Shown here: positions 4,857 to 42,030 of the stretch, one piece after another
Layout of the letters: each line of letters opens with the position of its first letter
Position numbering within the stretch: position 1 is the first letter of the stretch
DNA from: Bacteroidota bacterium
GTDB taxonomy: Bacteria > Bacteroidota > Bacteroidia > Bacteroidales > CG2-30-32-10
Assembly: GCA_043801235.1 (NCBI GenBank)
Contig: JAZDMF010000312.1
Location: forward strand, 1-43,526
DNA length: 43,526 nucleotides
Direction of reading: 5' to 3'
Notes under the pieces: model-generated
What the model was told of the DNA's origin: nothing
Seen by the model: only the letters and a program-made list of their open reading frames with translations
Databases searched by the model: none
Translations under genes and position numbers: made by a program

Positions 4857-4864
4857 AAAATAAT

Positions 4865-4906
4865 ATGTAAGATGTATGATGTCAAATGGAAAATGTCAAA
4901 TGTGTT
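4865..4906. repeat. six in-phase heptanucleotide units (ATGNNNN)
   Basis: ATGTAAG ATGTATG ATGTCAA ATGGAAA ATGTCAA ATGTGTT read consecutively from 4865. Confidence 0.8.
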
Positions 4907-4970: not shown

Positions 4971-4999
4971 AGCCGTTTCAGCAATGAAGCGGCTTTTTT
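4971..4999. terminator. hairpin terminator between convergent groEL (+) and the PmbA-like gene (-)
   Basis: 10-bp stem AGCCGTTTCA / TGAAGCGGCT with one G-U pair, GCAA tetraloop, then T6 (4994-4999). A short A-run lies on the 5' side. Confidence 0.75.
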
Positions 5000-5034
5000 G
5001 AATTATCCGATATTAGACTGAGTGATTTATAATT

Positions 5035-6886: not shown

Positions 6887-8557
6887 TTACGGTCTTGTTA
6901 AGATTGGTAATTTGGTTTGATTTTTTGCTTTGCGTTGGGTTTCTATTTGTTTTACAAACAATGTCGGGCAAACGGTCGATACAGGAACTGAACCTGATTC
7001 TGCTCCGCAAAACCCTGTGAACAGGTCATAATCATCGCCAGCTGCTTCAATATTTGAGAAAATAGATAAAGGTGTTCCGACTAAATCAACTCCACGGACC
7101 AATTCATCCGGCCTGCCATCGACATAAATTCTATATACTTCGGTAGGAGTAACGTTAAATGCATTTGGTATATATCTGCCTGTCATTGTAAAGCCACCTA
7201 CAGTACTAACAAACCAATATCCATATTCTTTCCCTTGCTTTTTTGCTTCATCAATTAAAGCTTGTCTCAATTGTTCTGTCGTTAATGGTTTCTTAGATTC
7301 AACAAACATATTCGATTGACGACTCACGGCTTGCATTCCAGCCTGCGCTCTTCCGTGACCATTCGAATTGTTAAATCCTTCTATCGGAGTTCTCGACATT
7401 AAAAAGTTCTTCAATATTCCATTCTCTATAATTACTATCTTTTTTCCTGGTTGTCCCTGATCATCGTACTTATATGCTCCATTTAAAAATAATTTTTTAA
7501 ATTTAGAAATTGTGGGATCAAAAATTATAGACAGATCTTCGTTTAACACTTTTTCGCCTACTTTTTTCTTAAAAGTTTGAGCATCACTCTCGTCTTTCAA
7601 ACGCTGCCCTTCTATCCTGTGCCCGAAAATCTCATGAAAAAAAACTCCTGCTGATGCAGCAGATAATAAAGCCGGTCCTGTATATGAATCAACAACCGGA
7701 GCTGATCTTAATTTAGTCAGCGTTTCACTTAATTTTTTAGTTCCACTTATAATAATTTCATCCGATGGCAAATCGCTATGATAAAATCCGAAGTAACTGT
7801 TATATAACGGCAGATCCATTCCGTCGTCAGCCTGAGTTTTGCCATATACCATTACTCTGCAGGTAACTCTGTTTTCGGTAATATTGCTGCCATCGTTTGA
7901 TACAAAATATTTTCTTTCAATAATATAAGTGAAATTAGCCGTACCTTCAATTACATCTTTATTTTGAAGAAATATTGCTGAATAGCTTTTAAGTTTTGCT
8001 TCCCATGAAATGCTATCAAAAGCAATATCTGTTTCATTTAGCGGGGCTTCGTTATATACTACTGGCTTTTCTTTACTGAAATCATTCGATTTGTCTTCGT
8101 CTTCCACCTTCACAGCAATATTGGCTAATACCTTTGCATATAAATCGGCCGATTTGCGATATTGTTTATCAGTTTCTTTCCATAAAACCTGTTTGATTCC
8201 GGCCGGTACATTTTCAATGGGAAGATCAATTCCGCTGTCCCAGTCAAACCAACCGTAATCTTCTCCTTTTATCGGATGGTTATTGTCAATGGTATCATTA
8301 CCTACCCTGACTTGCACACACAACTTGCGTTTATGCGACCAGCCTGATTTAATAATTTGTCCAAATGATGTTTCAATGGAATAGGTTTTAACATCATTCA
8401 CACGATACGAAAGATAATATGGCGCTGTCTTTTCTTTAATTAAGGTATCCATATTTCTGCTGAGCTCTTCTTTCAGTATATTTGGTAATGAATCTTGCGA
8501 AATTGCCGTAACCGAAAGTAAGAATCCAAGAAGGAATAAATAAATTATTTTTTTCAT
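6887..8557 (-). CDS. exported TldD-like zinc metallopeptidase
   Basis: Signal peptide MKKIIYLFLLGFLLSVTAISQ. HExxxH-type motif FFHEIFGHRIEG, SNGHGRA and GFCG...G motifs typical of the TldD family. 25-nt gap to the downstream partner gene. Confidence 0.75.
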   Translation of the reverse strand: MKKIIYLFLLGFLLSVTAISQDSLPNILKEELSRNMDTLIKEKTAPYYLSYRVNDVKTYSIETSFGQIIKSGWSHKRKLCVQVRVGNDTIDNNHPIKGEDYGWFDWDSGIDLPIENVPAGIKQVLWKETDKQYRKSADLYAKVLANIAVKVEDEDKSNDFSKEKPVVYNEAPLNETDIAFDSISWEAKLKSYSAIFLQNKDVIEGTANFTYIIERKYFVSNDGSNITENRVTCRVMVYGKTQADDGMDLPLYNSYFGFYHSDLPSDEIIISGTKKLSETLTKLRSAPVVDSYTGPALLSAASAGVFFHEIFGHRIEGQRLKDESDAQTFKKKVGEKVLNEDLSIIFDPTISKFKKLFLNGAYKYDDQGQPGKKIVIIENGILKNFLMSRTPIEGFNNSNGHGRAQAGMQAVSRQSNMFVESKKPLTTEQLRQALIDEAKKQGKEYGYWFVSTVGGFTMTGRYIPNAFNVTPTEVYRIYVDGRPDELVRGVDLVGTPLSIFSNIEAAGDDYDLFTGFCGAESGSVPVSTVCPTLFVKQIETQRKAKNQTKLPILTRP

Positions 8558-8862: not shown

Positions 8863-8945
8863 TAACGGGCTCTCGTATATCATTAGAGTATTCCAAAGAT
8901 AAAAAAATATATCCTCGTAAATGCAATATCAGAATTCAGAGATAT

Positions 8946-8976
8946 TAAACATTTAACATTTGCCATTTGACATCAT
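8946..8976. repeat. heptad tract TAAACAT TTAACAT TTGCCAT TTGACAT, an inverted copy of the 4876-4906 tract
   Basis: The reverse complement ATGATGTCAAATGGCAAATGTTAAATGTTTA matches 4876-4906 at 27 of 31 positions by hand alignment. Confidence 0.7.
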
Positions 8977-9020: not shown

Positions 9021-9055
9021 TGCAACCCTTTATTTTTTTTTCTGTCTTTTAATTC
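9021..9055 (+). promoter_or_regulatory. ECF-type promoter upstream of the ECF sigma gene (probable autoregulation)
   Basis: TGCAACCCTTT, an 11-nt spacer, then TGTCTTTTAATTC. AAC (9024-9026) and GTC (9044-9046) are 17 nt apart. The same two blocks recur with identical spacing at 11642-11676. Confidence 0.65.
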
Positions 9056-11435: not shown

Positions 11436-11567
11436 TCAAAAATAATTTTCTCGCTGATTAACCCAGAAAAATTCGCAGACAGCGCAGATAAAAATAATTT
11501 TCACACAAAGCCGCAAAGGGTTTTTTGCATCCTCGCTGTTTCTCCCATTCCCCGTTTCATTTTTTTA

Positions 11568-11611
11568 TTGCCTATGGTGCCAACTGCCAATTGTCTACCG
11601 AGAACTGAAAT
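11568..11611. repeat. degenerate YTGCCNA heptad array after a T-run
   Basis: TTGCCTA, a 2-nt phase slip, then CTGCCAA TTGTCTA CCGAGAA CTGAAAT, preceded by TTTTTTTAT. Confidence 0.65.
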
Positions 11612-11641
11612 TATTTTATAATAAAAAATGTACCCCAAAAT

Positions 11642-11676
11642 TGCAACCCTTTGAAATTTTATTTGTCTTTTATTTC
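11642..11676 (+). promoter_or_regulatory. second ECF-type promoter, upstream of the GIN-domain gene
   Basis: TGCAACCCTTT, an 11-nt spacer, then TGTCTTTTATTTC. The -35 block is identical 11/11 and the -10 block 12/13 to the 9021-9055 promoter, with the same spacing. Confidence 0.65.
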
Positions 11677-11726
11677 AGAGACGTTAAAATCTTAAATCTG
11701 AAATAAATAAATCTAAAATGTATTTT

Positions 11727-12517: not shown

Positions 12518-12549
12518 TGATGACTTAATGACCATTGACCAATGACTAA
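12518..12549. repeat. period-7/8 tract with a recurring TGAC core
   Basis: TGAC at 12521, 12529, 12536 and 12543. The tract overlaps the first ATG (12542) of the ORF-track model. Confidence 0.5.
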
Positions 12550-12559
12550 TTTATATTTT

Positions 12560-14097: not shown

Positions 14098-14193
14098 ATT
14101 ATTTGTTTTTTGAAATAAAAATTTCATTTGTTATTAGTTACATGTTGCTGGTTTCTGGTTTGTCTTCGCCCTTTTGCTGTTTAACTTTTTTTA

Positions 14194-14228
14194 TTGCCAA
14201 CTGCCAATTGCCTACTGCGGACTGATTA
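14194..14228. repeat. YTGCCNA heptad array, 5 units
   Basis: TTGCCAA CTGCCAA TTGCCTA CTGCGGA CTGATTA, preceded by TTTTTTTAT. Confidence 0.8.
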
Positions 14229-14251
14229 CCCTTCACCGATTATTTTTTGTT

Positions 14252-14461
14252 TTACTTATCTTCAGGAAACCCCCATTCCTCAAGCACTCCGCGAAATATT
14301 TTTGGCATGATGTCATCTCCATCGAACTTTATGGTAACTGATTTTGTTGCCAGGTCTGCTACAACTGAGCTCACACCATCTATCTCTGAAATAGCATTTT
14401 CAACATTTCTTTTGCAGCCGCCGCAGTCCATGTTCTTTACTTTTATGATTTCTGTTTTCAT
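14252..14461 (-). CDS. small cytoplasmic HMA-domain metallochaperone-like protein
   Basis: 69 aa. MDCGGCKRNVENA metal-binding motif at the canonical position of a ferredoxin-like HMA fold. Confidence 0.85.
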   Translation of the reverse strand: MKTEIIKVKNMDCGGCKRNVENAISEIDGVSSVVADLATKSVTIKFDGDDIMPKIFRGVLEEWGFPEDK

Positions 14462-14664
14462 ATTAAGTTAGTTTTATAATTTTGATACTGGTTGCTGATT
14501 TCTGGCTCCTTGTTACTGTTAACCGATCACTTGTCTGCGTTCACCCATTATCAGCTTCTAATGATTTTACTATTCTTTACAACAAAGACACTTAGAACAC
14601 TGAAGTTCACTGAGTTTTTTTTTATAATTCAATTTATTTTTCGGTTTTACTAAAAAAAAAATTT

Positions 14665-14692
14665 ATGCCTACTGCCGACTGAAGACTGCCAA
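14665..14692. repeat. YTGCCNA heptad array, 4 units
   Basis: ATGCCTA CTGCCGA CTGAAGA CTGCCAA. Confidence 0.75.
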
Positions 14693-14774
14693 CTTTTTCT
14701 TTTTCTCTTTTTCGCATCATCGCATTTTAACTATATCGCCCATTTGCCCTTTCTCTGTTTCAATTGTTTTTTTA

Positions 14775-14802
14775 TTGCCTACTGAGGACTGCCTACTATT
14801 AA
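14775..14802. repeat. YTGCCNA heptad array, 4 units
   Basis: TTGCCTA CTGAGGA CTGCCTA CTATTAA, preceded by TTTTTTTAT. Confidence 0.75.
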
Positions 14803-14878
14803 TTTCTCGCGACTTCGCTATTTTGCTCTGTCGCCATTTCGTCCATTCTTTCATTCTCCGATTCTTTTAAATATAATT

Positions 14879-17101
14879 TCAATCACTTTTCAGAGTCAGC
14901 CTGATTCCTGCATAGAACATTCTGCCGGCAATTGGACCCCAAACAATCGATGTGTCAAAATGACTGCCGAATGGATCTTCTGCAGCAATTATGGGGTCTC
15001 TTTGTGTGAAGTCGGTCAGGTTTTCTCCACCAATATAAAAATCCCAACGTTTATATCTTTTGGTAACCTGTGCATACAGCAGGGTATATGCCGGGCTTTC
15101 GGATGGCCGCTGGTACTGCTCAGGATTGTTACCGGTATAGGGCAACCTGCTGCTTCCGTTAAAATGCGCCGTGAAATCAAACTGCCATTTTTTTAAATTT
15201 GTTGCATATGATAAAGACAAAAGTGCTTTGTAACGACTGGTAAACGGCTTTTCCTGGAATTGATCATTGATAGTTGTTTTCACATCATTGTAACGGAAAG
15301 CTGTTGTTATATCAAAACGTTTCATGGGCTGAAAGGTGAATTCGGTCTGTAAACTGTTCGAATAGGATTTGCCCTGAAGGTTGTAAAAATAAATAGTTGA
15401 GGAATTTTTATCCATATCAACGATAACCTGATTTATGAAATCGGTGCGGAAGAAATCTAACGTAAATGTTGCATCGCGTTTTGAGATTTTCATACTTCTC
15501 ATATAGCTGATGCCGTAATTCCATGCCTGCTCCGGTTTCAGATCTTCTTCAAAAACAAGTTTACGCGAACTGGCTAAAACAGCAGAATTTTCAGGCAGGA
15601 CGTTTGCAATGCGATAGCCCTTTCCCACGGAACCCCGAAGTGTGTTGAATTCATTCAGGTTATACCTGAAATGCATGCGGGGAGTTATGAACAGGCCATA
15701 TTTGCTGTTATGGTCGGCACGGATTCCTGCAATACCGGTGAATATCTCCATGTATGAGTATGTATATTGTGTGAAAACACCAGGAACAGATTCGCTTTTC
15801 TTAAATGATGAATCGTTAAGGGTCTCAGAAATATTATCCAGAATATAGCTGAATCCGCTGGTTATTTTATGATTGGGATTTCCAAAATGATCGGCATAAA
15901 GGAGATTGATGTAAAGATTCTTTTCTGTACCATCGTATTTATTTAACCCGTAAAAAGAATTCTGCCGGTGATAGGATCCGCTAAGCATGGTTCCTATACT
16001 TCTTCCTTCTTTTGCAAACAGGATTCCATTTTTGGTATAGAACTGGTAACGGCGGGTGCGCACATTAATCCCGTAATTCAATGTGTCACCAAAATCCATT
16101 GGCCATGATGATTTGATCTGGCCGCTGACCCTGTTCTCGTCAAGAATCAATAGTGAAGTTCTGCTTTCTAGTTTTCCGGGGATGCGATAATTCCAGCGGT
16201 TCATTAAATTCAACTGGCGGATATGAGGCACATCAAGGAAACCATCTTCATTCATGTCGACAGGTTTCTCGTGATTCTCACCGTGAACAAAAAACATGGT
16301 ACTGAGATTCTCTTTGATTTTGGCCTTCGTATTCATATTCAGTTCCATGCGTCCTTCGCTGTTTCCGAAAATATTAAGGAAAAACTTTTCTTTGTTTTCT
16401 TCAGGATTCTTGTAGTCAATATTTATCTGGCCGGTAATTGATTCATATCCGTTGATTACCGATGATGTACCCTTTGATACCTGTATGGCATCCATCCATG
16501 GTCCGGGAACATAGCCCAGTCCGTAGGTGGTGGCCAGCCCGCGTATGGCAGGAAGGTTTTCAATCAGGATCTGACTGTATATTCCTGCAAGCCCGAGCAT
16601 CTGAATTTGCTTTGCCCCGGAAACAGCATCGGAATAATTGATGTCAACCGTGGCGCTGTTCTGAAAACTTTCGGAGAGGTTGCAGCATGCAGCTTTCTGA
16701 AGGCCTGCACCTGTTATTACTGTAGTGTTCAGCGGTTTGATTTTCGAAAAATAAGAACCTGCCAGATCTCCTGTTATTACTAATTCCTTGAGCTCAGAGT
16801 TTGTGGTAAGAAAAATTTTTATTTCAATCTGATCAGCAGAAATACTGATTGTGTCTGTCATGTAACCGATATAACTTACAATAATTTTATTGTCAGTTGT
16901 ACTGATTTTTTTCAGAGTGAATTCGCCCTTGTTATCTGTAATTGTTCCGTAAGTCGTACCAATCCAGCGGATACTGGCACCCGGAAGAGGAACAAGGTTT
17001 TTATCATTGTCAAATTCTTTTATAGAGCCCAGCAGCGTTTGCGCCTGCAAAACAGGATATATAATAAATAAAAAAAATAAAATATTGATAATTCTTTTCA
17101 T
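14879..17101 (-). CDS. TonB-dependent receptor with an N-terminal carboxypeptidase-regulatory-like domain
   Basis: 740 aa. Signal peptide, CarbopepD_reg-like start (PLPGASIRWIGTTYGTITDNKGEFTLKK), plug region (SKGTSSVINGYESITGQINI), long beta-barrel. Confidence 0.85.
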   Translation of the reverse strand: MKRIINILFFLFIIYPVLQAQTLLGSIKEFDNDKNLVPLPGASIRWIGTTYGTITDNKGEFTLKKISTTDNKIIVSYIGYMTDTISISADQIEIKIFLTTNSELKELVITGDLAGSYFSKIKPLNTTVITGAGLQKAACCNLSESFQNSATVDINYSDAVSGAKQIQMLGLAGIYSQILIENLPAIRGLATTYGLGYVPGPWMDAIQVSKGTSSVINGYESITGQINIDYKNPEENKEKFFLNIFGNSEGRMELNMNTKAKIKENLSTMFFVHGENHEKPVDMNEDGFLDVPHIRQLNLMNRWNYRIPGKLESRTSLLILDENRVSGQIKSSWPMDFGDTLNYGINVRTRRYQFYTKNGILFAKEGRSIGTMLSGSYHRQNSFYGLNKYDGTEKNLYINLLYADHFGNPNHKITSGFSYILDNISETLNDSSFKKSESVPGVFTQYTYSYMEIFTGIAGIRADHNSKYGLFITPRMHFRYNLNEFNTLRGSVGKGYRIANVLPENSAVLASSRKLVFEEDLKPEQAWNYGISYMRSMKISKRDATFTLDFFRTDFINQVIVDMDKNSSTIYFYNLQGKSYSNSLQTEFTFQPMKRFDITTAFRYNDVKTTINDQFQEKPFTSRYKALLSLSYATNLKKWQFDFTAHFNGSSRLPYTGNNPEQYQRPSESPAYTLLYAQVTKRYKRWDFYIGGENLTDFTQRDPIIAAEDPFGSHFDTSIVWGPIAGRMFYAGIRLTLKSD

Positions 17102-19795: not shown

Positions 19796-19830
19796 ATTTC
19801 AAGAATCAAATTCCAAAATCGTAAATCAAA
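19796..19830. repeat. heptad tract, 5 units
   Basis: ATTTCAA GAATCAA ATTCCAA AATCGTA AATCAAA, between convergent phoH2 and the M28 gene. Confidence 0.7.
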
Positions 19831-29446: not shown

Positions 29447-29647
29447 AATAATATGATTTTCGCCTGCAAAAATAAAAAGTAAAAACTCAGGAAACAAAAA
29501 AAATATTAAAAGTTTTCGAAGTTTATTTTCTTTATTTTACTGGATGGAATCAATGATTTATCGGTATTTTCTTTATGTAAGTGAAAATATTAATATTTTT
29601 TGGATTCATAAATATGTTCATTTTATTAAATATTTCGGTTTCATTTC

Positions 29648-29803
29648 ATGGCAAGGAACTGCGACATCAAGCAAAGAACCATTAAAGCAGCAAAAGACCT
29701 TTTTTTTCAGCAGGGTTATTCGAAAGTTTCAGTTGAAGACATTATAAAAAAGGCCGGAATCAGCAAGAAAACATTGTACAGATATTTTATCAGCAAATTA
29801 TGA
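29648..29803 (+). pseudogene. TetR-family N-terminal HTH fragment (51 codons), truncated remnant
   Basis: Not in the ORF track because it is under 60 aa. Translation MARNCDIKQRTIKAAKDLFFQQGYSKVSVEDIIKKAGISKKTLYRYFISKL-stop is a canonical TetR HTH with no ligand-binding domain downstream. Confidence 0.7.
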
Positions 29804-30064
29804 AGGAATTTTGACTGAAGAAGCAAAGAAAAGCTACCTTTCGAATCAACAATAAAATTTATTTCTTCCTGTGGTATTACATTTCCTTTTTTCCCTTACT
29901 AAAAGATTTATAAAATTTTATCTGTACTTAAACCGATAAATGTCTATAATATTTTATTGTTAGTACATCTAAGGTTGTCGTAGGTGTAATATTCCTTGCT
30001 TTTCATAGAGATTAGTTGACTTTAAGGATAAAATTTTGTACATTGTGAACAGAAAGCCGGAGCT

Positions 30065-40939: not shown

Positions 40940-41983
40940 ATGTACAGGAAAACTTCATCCGAACGAACCGAACTTTCTGAACTGGGTGAGTTTGGGCTTA
41001 TCAAGCGAATCTCTGGGTTCGTTGAACTCAAAAATCACTCCACGCTGAAAGGCATTGGCGATGATGCTGCTGTTATCAGCGCTGAAGGCGGAGAGATACT
41101 TGTTTCGACCGATCTGCTTGCAGAGGGCATACATTTCGATTTGTCATACATACCGCTGAAACACCTGGGATATAAAGCGGCAACCGTTAATTTCAGCGAT
41201 ATTGCTGCTATGAACGGTACTCCCGAGCAAATTACAGTCGGCATTGCATTATCCAGCCGCATTTCTCTTGAAGCTGTTGATGAACTTTATGAAGGCATAC
41301 GTCTGGCATGTAAAAATTATAACGTCGACCTGGTTGGTGGCGATACTTCAGCAAGCGCATCAGGTTTGTTTATTTCGGTTACAGTGATAGGCCGTGCAGG
41401 GAAAGATGAAATTGTTTACAGAAACGGAGCGCAGCTTAACGATATCATTTTTGTATCGGGAGATCTTGGCGGAGCTTATATGGGGCTATTGCTGCTAAAG
41501 CGTGAAAAACGGGTATTTGAAGCCAATCCCGAAATGCAGCCTGAACTTTCGGGTTACGATTATATTTTGCAACGGCAGCTGAAACCTGAACCAAGAACCG
41601 ATATCATAAAACGACTTAAAGAAGCAAAAGTGAAACCTACATCGATGATTGACATATCGGACGGGCTTGCTTCAGAAATACTTCATATCTGCGAGGAATC
41701 AGGAAAGGGCGCTGCTGTATATGAAGAGAAAATCCCTATCGACCCGGTTACAGTAAGTATGGCAGAAGAACTGAAAATCGATCAGACAATAGCAGCATTG
41801 AACGGCGGTGAAGATTATGAACTGCTCTTTACCATTTCCCAAAATGATTTTGAAAAGGTGAAAAACATCCCGGGTATTACTCCGGTGGGACATATTACTG
41901 AAGGAGGAGCAAACCTTGTGAGCCGCAGTGGCAGCCTGGTTCCGTTAACAGCACAGGGATGGGATGCGTTTATGAATAAATGA
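40940..41983 (+). CDS. thiL: thiamine-monophosphate kinase
   Basis: ELGEFGLIKRI, GIGDDAAV, VGGDTS, DISDGL: the AIR-synthase-related fold with the ThiL pattern. The track start at 40898 is a GTG, so I use the ATG at 40940. Confidence 0.88.
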   Translation: MYRKTSSERTELSELGEFGLIKRISGFVELKNHSTLKGIGDDAAVISAEGGEILVSTDLLAEGIHFDLSYIPLKHLGYKAATVNFSDIAAMNGTPEQITVGIALSSRISLEAVDELYEGIRLACKNYNVDLVGGDTSASASGLFISVTVIGRAGKDEIVYRNGAQLNDIIFVSGDLGGAYMGLLLLKREKRVFEANPEMQPELSGYDYILQRQLKPEPRTDIIKRLKEAKVKPTSMIDISDGLASEILHICEESGKGAAVYEEKIPIDPVTVSMAEELKIDQTIAALNGGEDYELLFTISQNDFEKVKNIPGITPVGHITEGGANLVSRSGSLVPLTAQGWDAFMNK

Positions 41984-42030
41984 TTTACGTTTTACAGATG
42001 ACGATTTACGAATTTGTTATTTGTAAATCA
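41982..42030. repeat. heptad tract, 7 units
   Basis: GATTTAC GTTTTAC AGATGAC GATTTAC GAATTTG TTATTTG TAAATCA, beginning at the thiL stop codon. Confidence 0.7.

Follow-up and report, generated by a model that had tools for sequence, protein, structure and literature searches.

Short, degenerate heptanucleotide tandem tracts in the intergenic DNA of a Bacteroidota contig

Period-7 tracts between the genes of the contig

The stretch of DNA analysed here (the window) is one whole 43,526-nt contig of a Bacteroidota metagenome-assembled genome (MAG), and all window results cover that contig. It is AT-rich (38% G+C), and its genes include secG, groES-groEL, a TldD/PmbA pair, a cluster of extracytoplasmic function (ECF) sigma and anti-sigma genes, a DUF2807 (GIN) gene, a TonB-dependent receptor (TBDR) gene with two HMA genes, phoH2, dxs, an RND efflux operon, an asnS-like gene and rpoN, among others. 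Our subject is the DNA between these genes, in which short tandem tracts of 7-nt units recur. The gene model consisted of the open reading frame (ORF) list and Pfam matches, and the remainder, 4.0-4.2 kb, was taken as intergenic. The closest relatives in the collections share 78-89% protein identity and are all Bacteroidota.

A sequence-only reading of the window had cited nine stretches with this period, and all nine read exactly as it wrote them. The tracts lying outside the dispersed repeat dealt with further on are given below; scores are those of the tract scorer, or of Tandem Repeats Finder (TRF) where so marked.

4861-4906, 3' untranslated region (UTR) of groEL: heptamer tract TAATATG TAAGATG TATGATG TCAAATG GAAAATG TCAAATG (top score, 13.5)
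8944-8973: heptamer tract ATTAAAC ATTTAAC ATTTGCC ATTTGAC (score 13.0)
11685-11719, 5' leader of the DUF2807/GIN gene: heptamer tract TAAAATC TTAAATC TGAAATA AATAAATC TAAAAT
12521-12550, ending 10 nt ahead of the likely start (12560) of a 164-aa gene: heptamer tract TGACTTA ATGACCA TTGACCA ATGACTA
14126-14164, 5' leader of the minus-strand 130-aa HMA gene: heptamer tract ATTTGTT ATTAGTT ACATGTT GCTGGTT TCTGGTT (..GTT units)
14694-14725: period-8 tract TTTTTCTT TTTCTCTT TTTCGCAT CATCGCAT
14807-14865: period-8 tract TCGCGACT TCGCTATT TTGCTCTG TCGCCATT TCGTCCAT TCTTTCAT TCTCCGAT
19796-19830, gap between the convergent phoH2 and M28 peptidase genes: weak heptamer tract, alone no better than chance
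41982-42023: weak heptamer tract GATTTAC GTTTTAC AGATGAC GATTTAC (TRF score 30, 68% matches, 16% indels)

Identity at lag 7 in the intergenic DNA was 0.337, as against 0.293 +/- 0.007 in dinucleotide-preserving shuffles (z = 6.1), and z rises to 6.7 once a small HMA gene is removed from the intergenic set. Lag 14 gave z = 2.4-2.9, an echo of lag 7, and lag 8 gave 2.6-3.1, while lags 4-6 and 9-11 lay between -0.2 and 1.3; the predicted excess at lag 7 is therefore borne out on this contig, with lag 6 flat. The coding DNA of the window displays period 3 only and has no lag-7 signal (9 lag-7 tracts vs 5.5 expected, several of them straddling gene ends), and the tracts are thus non-coding, as had been proposed. 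At an array threshold score of at least 30, TRF returned 22 arrays, 9 of them of period 7, with 2.6-4.9 copies of head-to-tail 7-nt units; 200 segment-wise shuffles averaged 1.49 such arrays and never gave more than 5. A separate tract scorer found 6 intergenic lag-7 tracts scoring at least 8.5 vs 0.32 expected, and the score of 13.5 of its top tract (4861-4903) compares with a maximum of at least 13 in 0.7% of shuffles. When ten tracts (340 nt, 8.5% of the intergenic DNA) were masked, the lag-7 z fell from 6.7 to 2.9, so that the excess comes mostly from those tracts, with a faint residue. Period-8 tracts are also in excess, albeit a smaller one (6 vs 1.4 expected). The tracts are short and degenerate (3-6 units, 68-86% match), and the longest perfect heptamer run in the window amounts to 2.0 units.

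That this periodicity is due to chance, or is a by-product of AT-rich composition, is hardly credible. The tracts had originally been chosen by eye, and the weak ones at 19796, 41982 and 14775 score in the range of shuffles, but the observed counts were never matched by dinucleotide-preserving shuffles (0/1000 for the tract scorer, 0/200 for TRF), and no signal is seen at the adjacent lags 6 and 9. For the tract set as a whole, chance is rejected. The tracts first listed thus stand as a set, whereas two or three of them, taken singly, do not exceed chance. Neither 19796-19830 nor 41982-42023 reaches the tract-score cut-off, so that each could be fortuitous; 14775-14802 is low as a lag-7 tract, yet its membership of the dispersed repeat supports it.

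The tracts were supposed to sit, for the most part, just 3' of genes lacking a hairpin terminator. Their positions are in fact mixed: (i) three abut start codons (11685-11719, 12521-12550 and 14126-14164), (ii) four or five are mid-gap or upstream (8944-8973, 14193-14229, 14664-14694 and 14774-14802 among them), and (iii) only three are near a stop codon, three beginning within 31 nt of one. The 4861-4906 tract, which can alternatively be read in register as ATGTNNN x6, begins 5 nt past the groEL stop, and 41982-42023 overlaps the stop of an AIR-synthase-like (thiL-like) gene identified by Pfam. The 8944-8973 tract precedes the ECF sigma gene by 94 nt and the ECF-type promoter of that gene by about 48 nt. 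The starts used here for the GIN gene (11727) and the 164-aa gene (12560) are the likely true ones, judged from relatives and from NCBI protein length. A leader paralogous to the 14126-14164 tract is found at 14481-14505. Units vary from tract to tract, although ATGTCAA/TTGACAT is present twice in the window, and neither orientation nor G/C bias is consistent relative to transcription.

Nor does groEL lack a hairpin terminator, as had been thought:

4973-5000, plus strand: canonical intrinsic terminator of groEL, CCGTTTCAGCAATGAAGCGG then CTTTTTTG (dG -9.8 kcal/mol, with T-run)

This terminator stands about 115 nt past the stop, with the tract in between. In 47 other Bacteroidota groEL loci, nearly all have a comparable G+C-rich hairpin and T-run, mostly about 25-90 nt after the stop (judged by eye), and since the terminator is nearer the stop in nearly all of them the groEL tract looks like an insertion. 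Within the 3' regions examined, terminators were found at 4973-5000, 13728-13704 and 2743-2772 only, all separate from the tracts; downstream of the GIN, phoH2, thiL-like and TBDR genes no hairpin with T-run was found. The tracts are direct repeats without significant predicted folding. A structured-RNA reading was rejected, as the best fold z-score was -1.8 (groEL 3' UTR), and 12/200 shuffles fold equally well or better.

Dispersed copies, gap turnover and spread in Bacteroidota

The sequence-only reading held that the tracts are not one dispersed repeat family. This is true of most of them, but the YTGCCNA tracts, together with a copy at 11540-11617 that had been missed, are the cores of one 65-75-nt dispersed repeat of the form ..CTGTTTMA..T7-ATTGCC-(heptamers).

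11540-11617, plus strand: repeat copy A (..CTGTTTCA..TTTTTTTATTGCC..AACTGCCAATTGTCTACCGAGAACTGA..) with heptamer core (nhmmer E = 6e-15)
14163-14235, plus strand: repeat copy B with TTGCCAA CTGCCAA TTGCCTA CTGCGGA CTGATTA at 14193-14229 (nhmmer E = 1e-15)
14665-14695, plus strand: partial repeat copy TGCCTAC TGCCGAC TGAAGAC TGCCAAC (nhmmer E = 0.057)
14741-14804, plus strand: repeat copy C with TTGCCTA CTGAGGA CTGCCTA at 14774-14802 (nhmmer E = 6e-13)

The three full copies and the partial one all lie on the plus strand within 3.3 kb. A profile built from the three full copies had no match in 166 other loci, syntenic relatives included, and neither terminal inverted repeats nor a stable hairpin were seen in the repeat (fold z-scores -1.1 to +1.2, both strands). 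Its TGCCNAC family is the only unit family that recurs in the window, at 4 sites.

Gene order allowed the gaps to be compared with those of relatives. The locus designated L166, whose GIN protein is 79% identical, is syntenic with window positions 9.0-22.9 kb, and partial synteny is seen with L165 (78%), L087 (TBDR, 83%) and the P0122 contig (82%), the closest syntenic relative, which was compared by gene calls only. For the TldD relatives (85-89% identity) synteny is limited to the TldD/PmbA pair, and the groEL relatives, with a best identity of 80% among the matches listed, were used for the lineage survey and not for gap alignment. The comparison involves a gene within 14128-14878, a stretch previously taken as one 751-nt gap:

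14252-14461, minus strand: 69-aa HMA (CopZ-like, MDCGGC) gene (Pfam PF00403, E = 7e-17)

This gene sits between the TBDR gene and the 130-aa HMA gene and has orthologues in L087, L165 and L166. The pair of small and larger HMA genes is common to L087, L165, L166 and the P0122 contig, with the receptor gene adjoining in all but L165. The gap lengths are as follows.

TBDR gene to small HMA gene: window 417 nt; L166 13; P0122 contig 52; L087 57; L165, TBDR not called
Small HMA gene to 130-aa HMA gene: window 124 nt; L166 49; P0122 contig 175; L165 92; L087 48
GIN gene to 164-aa gene: window 92-110 nt; L166 23; P0122 contig 74; L165 151; L087 not covered

Gaps of the window are thus inflated relative to those of syntenic relatives, and their content turns over. 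Period-7 and period-8 tracts make up most of the 417-nt gap as a mosaic; L087 has other 7-8-nt units (ACTTATA, ACTTGTNN) at the same sites, and the syntenic gaps of L166 are compact and hold no heptamer tracts. L165 (lag-7 z about 3.4) carries a 266-nt block of four or five different heptamer arrays (positions 748-1013) between its ECF sigma and anti-sigma genes, which overlap by 14 nt in both the window and L166, and more arrays precede its orthologue of the 12521-12550 tract. The 65-75-nt repeat is not present in the relatives, the gaps of which are too diverged to define element boundaries.

The habit belongs to a lineage and not to one locus, as had been suspected, and it is patchy. Over 134 Bacteroidota loci (groEL, TldD and TBDR neighbourhoods, with crude ORF-based intergenic DNA), the median lag-7 z was 0.1. 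The highest values were those of L018 (a Chitinophagaceae MAG; 13.2), L111 (10.4), the window (6.5, third) and L117 (5.7), and four loci, L007, L023 (Mucilaginibacter lappiensis), L079 (Tannerella forsythia) and L135, reached 3.3-3.7. Strong loci have arrays of up to 19 units, with several different units adjoining, and in L111 and L018 the same composite arrays occur at several loci in both orientations. In the long arrays of L111 and L117 variation is limited to a few re-amplified variant units, a pattern typical of slippage or unequal exchange. When 2.35 Mb of Bacteroidota loci were pooled, arrays exceeded shuffles at period 7 (133 vs 60), 14 (57 vs 15) and 21 (24 vs 4), with no excess over shuffles at periods 8, 10 and 11.

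Several of these loci deserve individual description. The gap arrays of L111 (1482-1781, 3999-4032, 5471-5514, 9198-9303 and 12175-12251) are built from the few units TATTGTC, AACTCCA and TCACCAA, in up to 19 copies, and those flanking a gene are often mutual reverse complements, as around its TonB-dependent receptor gene, so that they could pair within one transcript. In L079 (T. forsythia ATCC 43037), inverted arrays of AATGGTT x4 followed by TAACAAT x4 (7241-7334 and 7553-7632) could form a long hairpin, the whole composite being duplicated 312 nt away. L023 holds, at 11634-11717, arrays of TAAGCCC/TAAGTCT.. and then inverted GACTTAG/AACTTAA.. (14-nt periods by TRF), which lie between the groEL stop and its terminator, the position of window 4861-4906, with unrelated units. 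In L081, a 21-nt x9 tandem array (AATAAATGTCAACTCGTGTTC; 15869-16058) sits in a 1.1-kb gap separating two histidine-kinase genes, and its unit holds ATGTCAA, a heptamer also seen in the window tract at 4879-4903. The groEL leaders (70 nt upstream) of L007, L018, L020, L023, L042 and L047, labelled Chitinophagaceae, Mucilaginibacter or Ilyomonas, have in common TCAAAT(C/T)T-like motifs at 7-8-nt spacing, which may represent a conserved leader element or convergence; in L018 and L023, ATCTCAA arrays stop about 10 nt before the groEL start, and the window leader is without them.

Described repeats and the origin of the tracts

It had been stated that no described element class fits these tracts. 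Tandem heptanucleotide repeats are, however, described in the literature as far as it is summarised here, namely as long simple sequence repeats (SSRs), as cyanobacterial short tandemly repeated repetitive sequences (STRRs; PMC2670836) and as Bacteroidetes heptamer assemblages (PMC4679880). The window has the head-to-tail 7-nt units, the excess over composition and the non-coding confinement of heptanucleotide tandem repeats; the kind of repeat is therefore already known, and it is weak and degenerate on this contig. In many prokaryotes, long SSRs are most often heptanucleotides, and a slippage hypothesis has been advanced for them (Mrazek, Guo and Shah 2007, as summarised in PMC4679880 and PMC4692102). 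Like the tracts of the window, the long SSRs in these summaries consist of head-to-tail 7-nt units, mostly intergenic and abundant in scattered lineages (PMC4679880, PMC4692102), whereas the window arrays are far shorter and more degenerate, and few or none qualify singly by the strict length criterion.

The STRRs are 'usually made up of 7 bp repeats' of unknown function (PMC2670836). They too are tandem units in intergenic and intra-operon gaps, and their arrays at times lie in inverted pairs able to form hairpins (PMC2670836). Inverted arrays comparable to these pairs occur in L018, L023 and L079, but the STRR host is a (heterocystous) cyanobacterium, whereas the relatives of the window are all Bacteroidota. 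STRRs draw on a handful of fixed units, which form long arrays at a great many loci; the window instead has many different units in short runs, only the TGCCNAC family recurring, on one contig. TAACTGA and larger assemblages of heptamer repeats are known from intergenic DNA of Beggiatoaceae, Cyanobacteria and five Bacteroidetes, and the gaps of close relatives of the repeat-bearing Bacteroidetes are shorter and repeat-free (MacGregor 2015, PMC4679880). As in the window, these are intergenic direct repeats in Bacteroidetes, often near start codons, and the shorter gaps of relatives recall L166. Membership of the TAACTGA family itself was rejected (9 matches with at most 3 mismatches vs 5.2 expected, none of them a clean repeat).

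Two further classes bear on the comparison. The heptanucleotide repeats upstream of Haemophilus influenzae hmw1A are reportedly a phase-variable contingency SSR; they resemble the window tracts in having a 7-nt unit in a promoter or leader, with unit number set by slippage. Contingency SSRs are, however, long perfect arrays with high-frequency expression switching, while the tracts of the window are too short and imperfect for hypermutability now and are not tied to surface-antigen genes. Elhai and colleagues are said to have described, in 2008, cyanobacterial small dispersed repeats (SDRs) and miniature inverted-repeat transposable elements (MITEs) that are very short, intergenic and provided with heptamer tandem tracts. 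The 65-75-nt repeat of the window resembles an SDR, and differs in having no hairpin or terminal inverted repeat and in its 3-4 local copies on one strand.

In our judgement the tracts are probably heptanucleotide microsatellites generated by slippage, largely decayed and mostly neutral, which inflate gaps tolerant of length changes, one segment having been copied locally. Of the three options first put forward, slippage-generated spacer DNA is thus the one that fits best. Replication slippage or local unequal exchange would repeatedly duplicate 7-nt (less often 8-nt) units in this lineage, in length-tolerant DNA such as leaders, 3' UTRs and intra-operon gaps. Methyl-directed mismatch repair deals efficiently with 1-3-bp loops but far less so with longer ones (Huang and Mrazek 2014), and 7-nt loops, which reportedly escape it, would be left in place. 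Arrays would last only outside genes, as a 7-nt step breaks the reading frame. They would grow, variant units would be re-amplified, which would account for the 14-nt echo, and point mutation would then erode them. One tract-bearing 65-75-nt segment would also have been copied to three or four places on the contig. The net outcome would be variable, inflated spacer DNA of no required function. As to the length of the unit, the 7-nt preference may stem from the length of DNA contacted by the polymerase, a published hypothesis. A neutral-decay test on invariant tract columns was set aside, as ascertainment bias and re-amplified variant units make it unsafe.

Several points weigh against this explanation. 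Slippage as the generating step is an inference, as is neutrality, and the mechanism does not account for the choice of 7 nt over 6 or 8. The occurrence of the same units at several loci per genome (L111, L018 and the window repeat) is not explained by simple local slippage. Among the cyclic 4-mers of heptamer units, TGAC/GTCA shows the strongest enrichment (10 vs 2.4 expected, p = 1.3e-4 uncorrected for 104 tests), followed by CAAT/ATTG (17 vs 6.9 expected), in a sample of 73 period-7 arrays from 39 loci in which arrays from one genome are not independent and significance is uncertain; this enrichment could reflect selection, or a mechanism, that is sequence-specific. The tract at 12521-12550 has an orthologue at L165 5712-5743, with 84% mean column identity over 79 nt, while the adjoining protein is only 78% identical, a degree of conservation that hints at constraint. 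Unit number is equal in the aligned part, and this is the only tract that could be aligned, the relatives being at 78-89% protein identity. Finally, the window is no longer than L165 in the 8944-8973 region, so not every tract is an expansion.

The conserved tract and the TGAC/GTCA cores enriched across loci are also what would be expected of arrays of functional binding sites on RNA or single-stranded DNA (ssDNA), for proteins of the cold-shock-domain, S1-like or RNA recognition motif (RRM) type, each domain covering about 7 nt. We consider such arrays unlikely, if worth keeping in mind, and their proposed part in tuning translation, stability or coupling within operons equally so. Three tracts end at or about 10 nt from start codons, in many an unvarying core of 3-4 nt is combined with spacer positions that vary, and no structure is predicted for the tracts; the two HMA genes have leaders that are alike within each genome and different between genomes; and in the literature CspB binds as one protein per heptamer, while roles in stability or coupling have been proposed for STRRs (PMC2670836). 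An invariant core is, however, expected from ascertainment and re-amplified variant units alike. Moreover, units differ widely between tracts and have mixed orientation to transcription, the syntenic L166 has compact gaps without any tracts, and no candidate binding protein was identified.

The dispersed repeat raises the question of whether the tracts are instead mainly the central parts or the remains of tiny mobile or dispersed elements of the MITE or SDR type, not formed by slippage in place, which seems to us rather improbable. A heptamer-core repeat in three full copies and one partial copy with none in 166 other loci, the composites recurring at several loci in both orientations in L111 and L018, and window gaps hundreds of nt longer than their orthologues would all suit such elements. 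The confinement of the window copies to 3.3 kb of one strand nevertheless fits local duplication, no terminal inverted repeats or hairpin were seen (fold z-scores as above), and the tracts at 4861, 8944, 11685, 12521 and 14126 have unrelated units and no common flanks. A broader and more speculative proposal, to which we likewise assign a rather low probability, is that a dedicated lineage-specific system makes the arrays or acts on them, in the form of either a tiny self-spreading element or arrays that an RNA- or ssDNA-binding protein reads in 7-nt register, coupling or insulating operon genes. Hints in its direction come from the L111 composites in opposite orientations around genes, the contig-specific repeat with its heptamer core, the one tract kept across about 20% protein divergence and the TGAC/GTCA cores in many lineages. 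Far less probable is the sequence-only option of non-canonical transcription 3'-end signals for genes without hairpin terminators. Although the GIN, phoH2, thiL-like and TBDR genes show no hairpin and T-run and three tracts begin close to a stop codon, the groEL tract is followed by a normal terminator, the terminator-less gaps are mostly intra-operon or convergent, tracts immediately before start codons are at least as numerous, no motif or orientation is common to them, and the orthologous genes of L166 manage without tracts.

If the tracts are decayed heptanucleotide microsatellites, as we favour, annotators would do well to treat them as gap-inflating repeats, rather than as sites in which to hunt RNAs or terminators. 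Why longer-unit tandem repeats in bacteria so often favour 7-nt units is an old, little-studied question, to which the window adds a Bacteroidota lineage with a weak process and mostly decayed tracts, and the survey adds vigorous lineages (L018, L111, L117 and L165), even syntenic relatives differing sharply. The window itself does not settle this question, for which the array-rich relatives are better material; among the loci showing the habit are two cultured strains, T. forsythia ATCC 43037 and M. lappiensis ATCC BAA-1855, suited to distinguishing slippage from function.

Other signals at the locus

Rfam covariance models gave 0 matches at the gathering score over the whole window, and a sigma-70 promoter scan of the window was uninformative (61 sites vs 64 expected). 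The 567-nt gap at 29498-30064, upstream of a gene for a 631-aa protein without Pfam match, has a lag-7 identity of 0.296, that is, no signal, and no Rfam match. An ECF-type promoter-like motif, TGCAACCCTT-N12-13-(C/T)TGTCTTTT, is present in the window at 9021-9055 and 11642-11676, and is kept upstream of the ECF sigma and DUF2807/GIN genes in the window, L165 and L166. Its conservation at both genes suggests that the ECF sigma factor is autoregulated and that the GIN gene belongs to its regulon.

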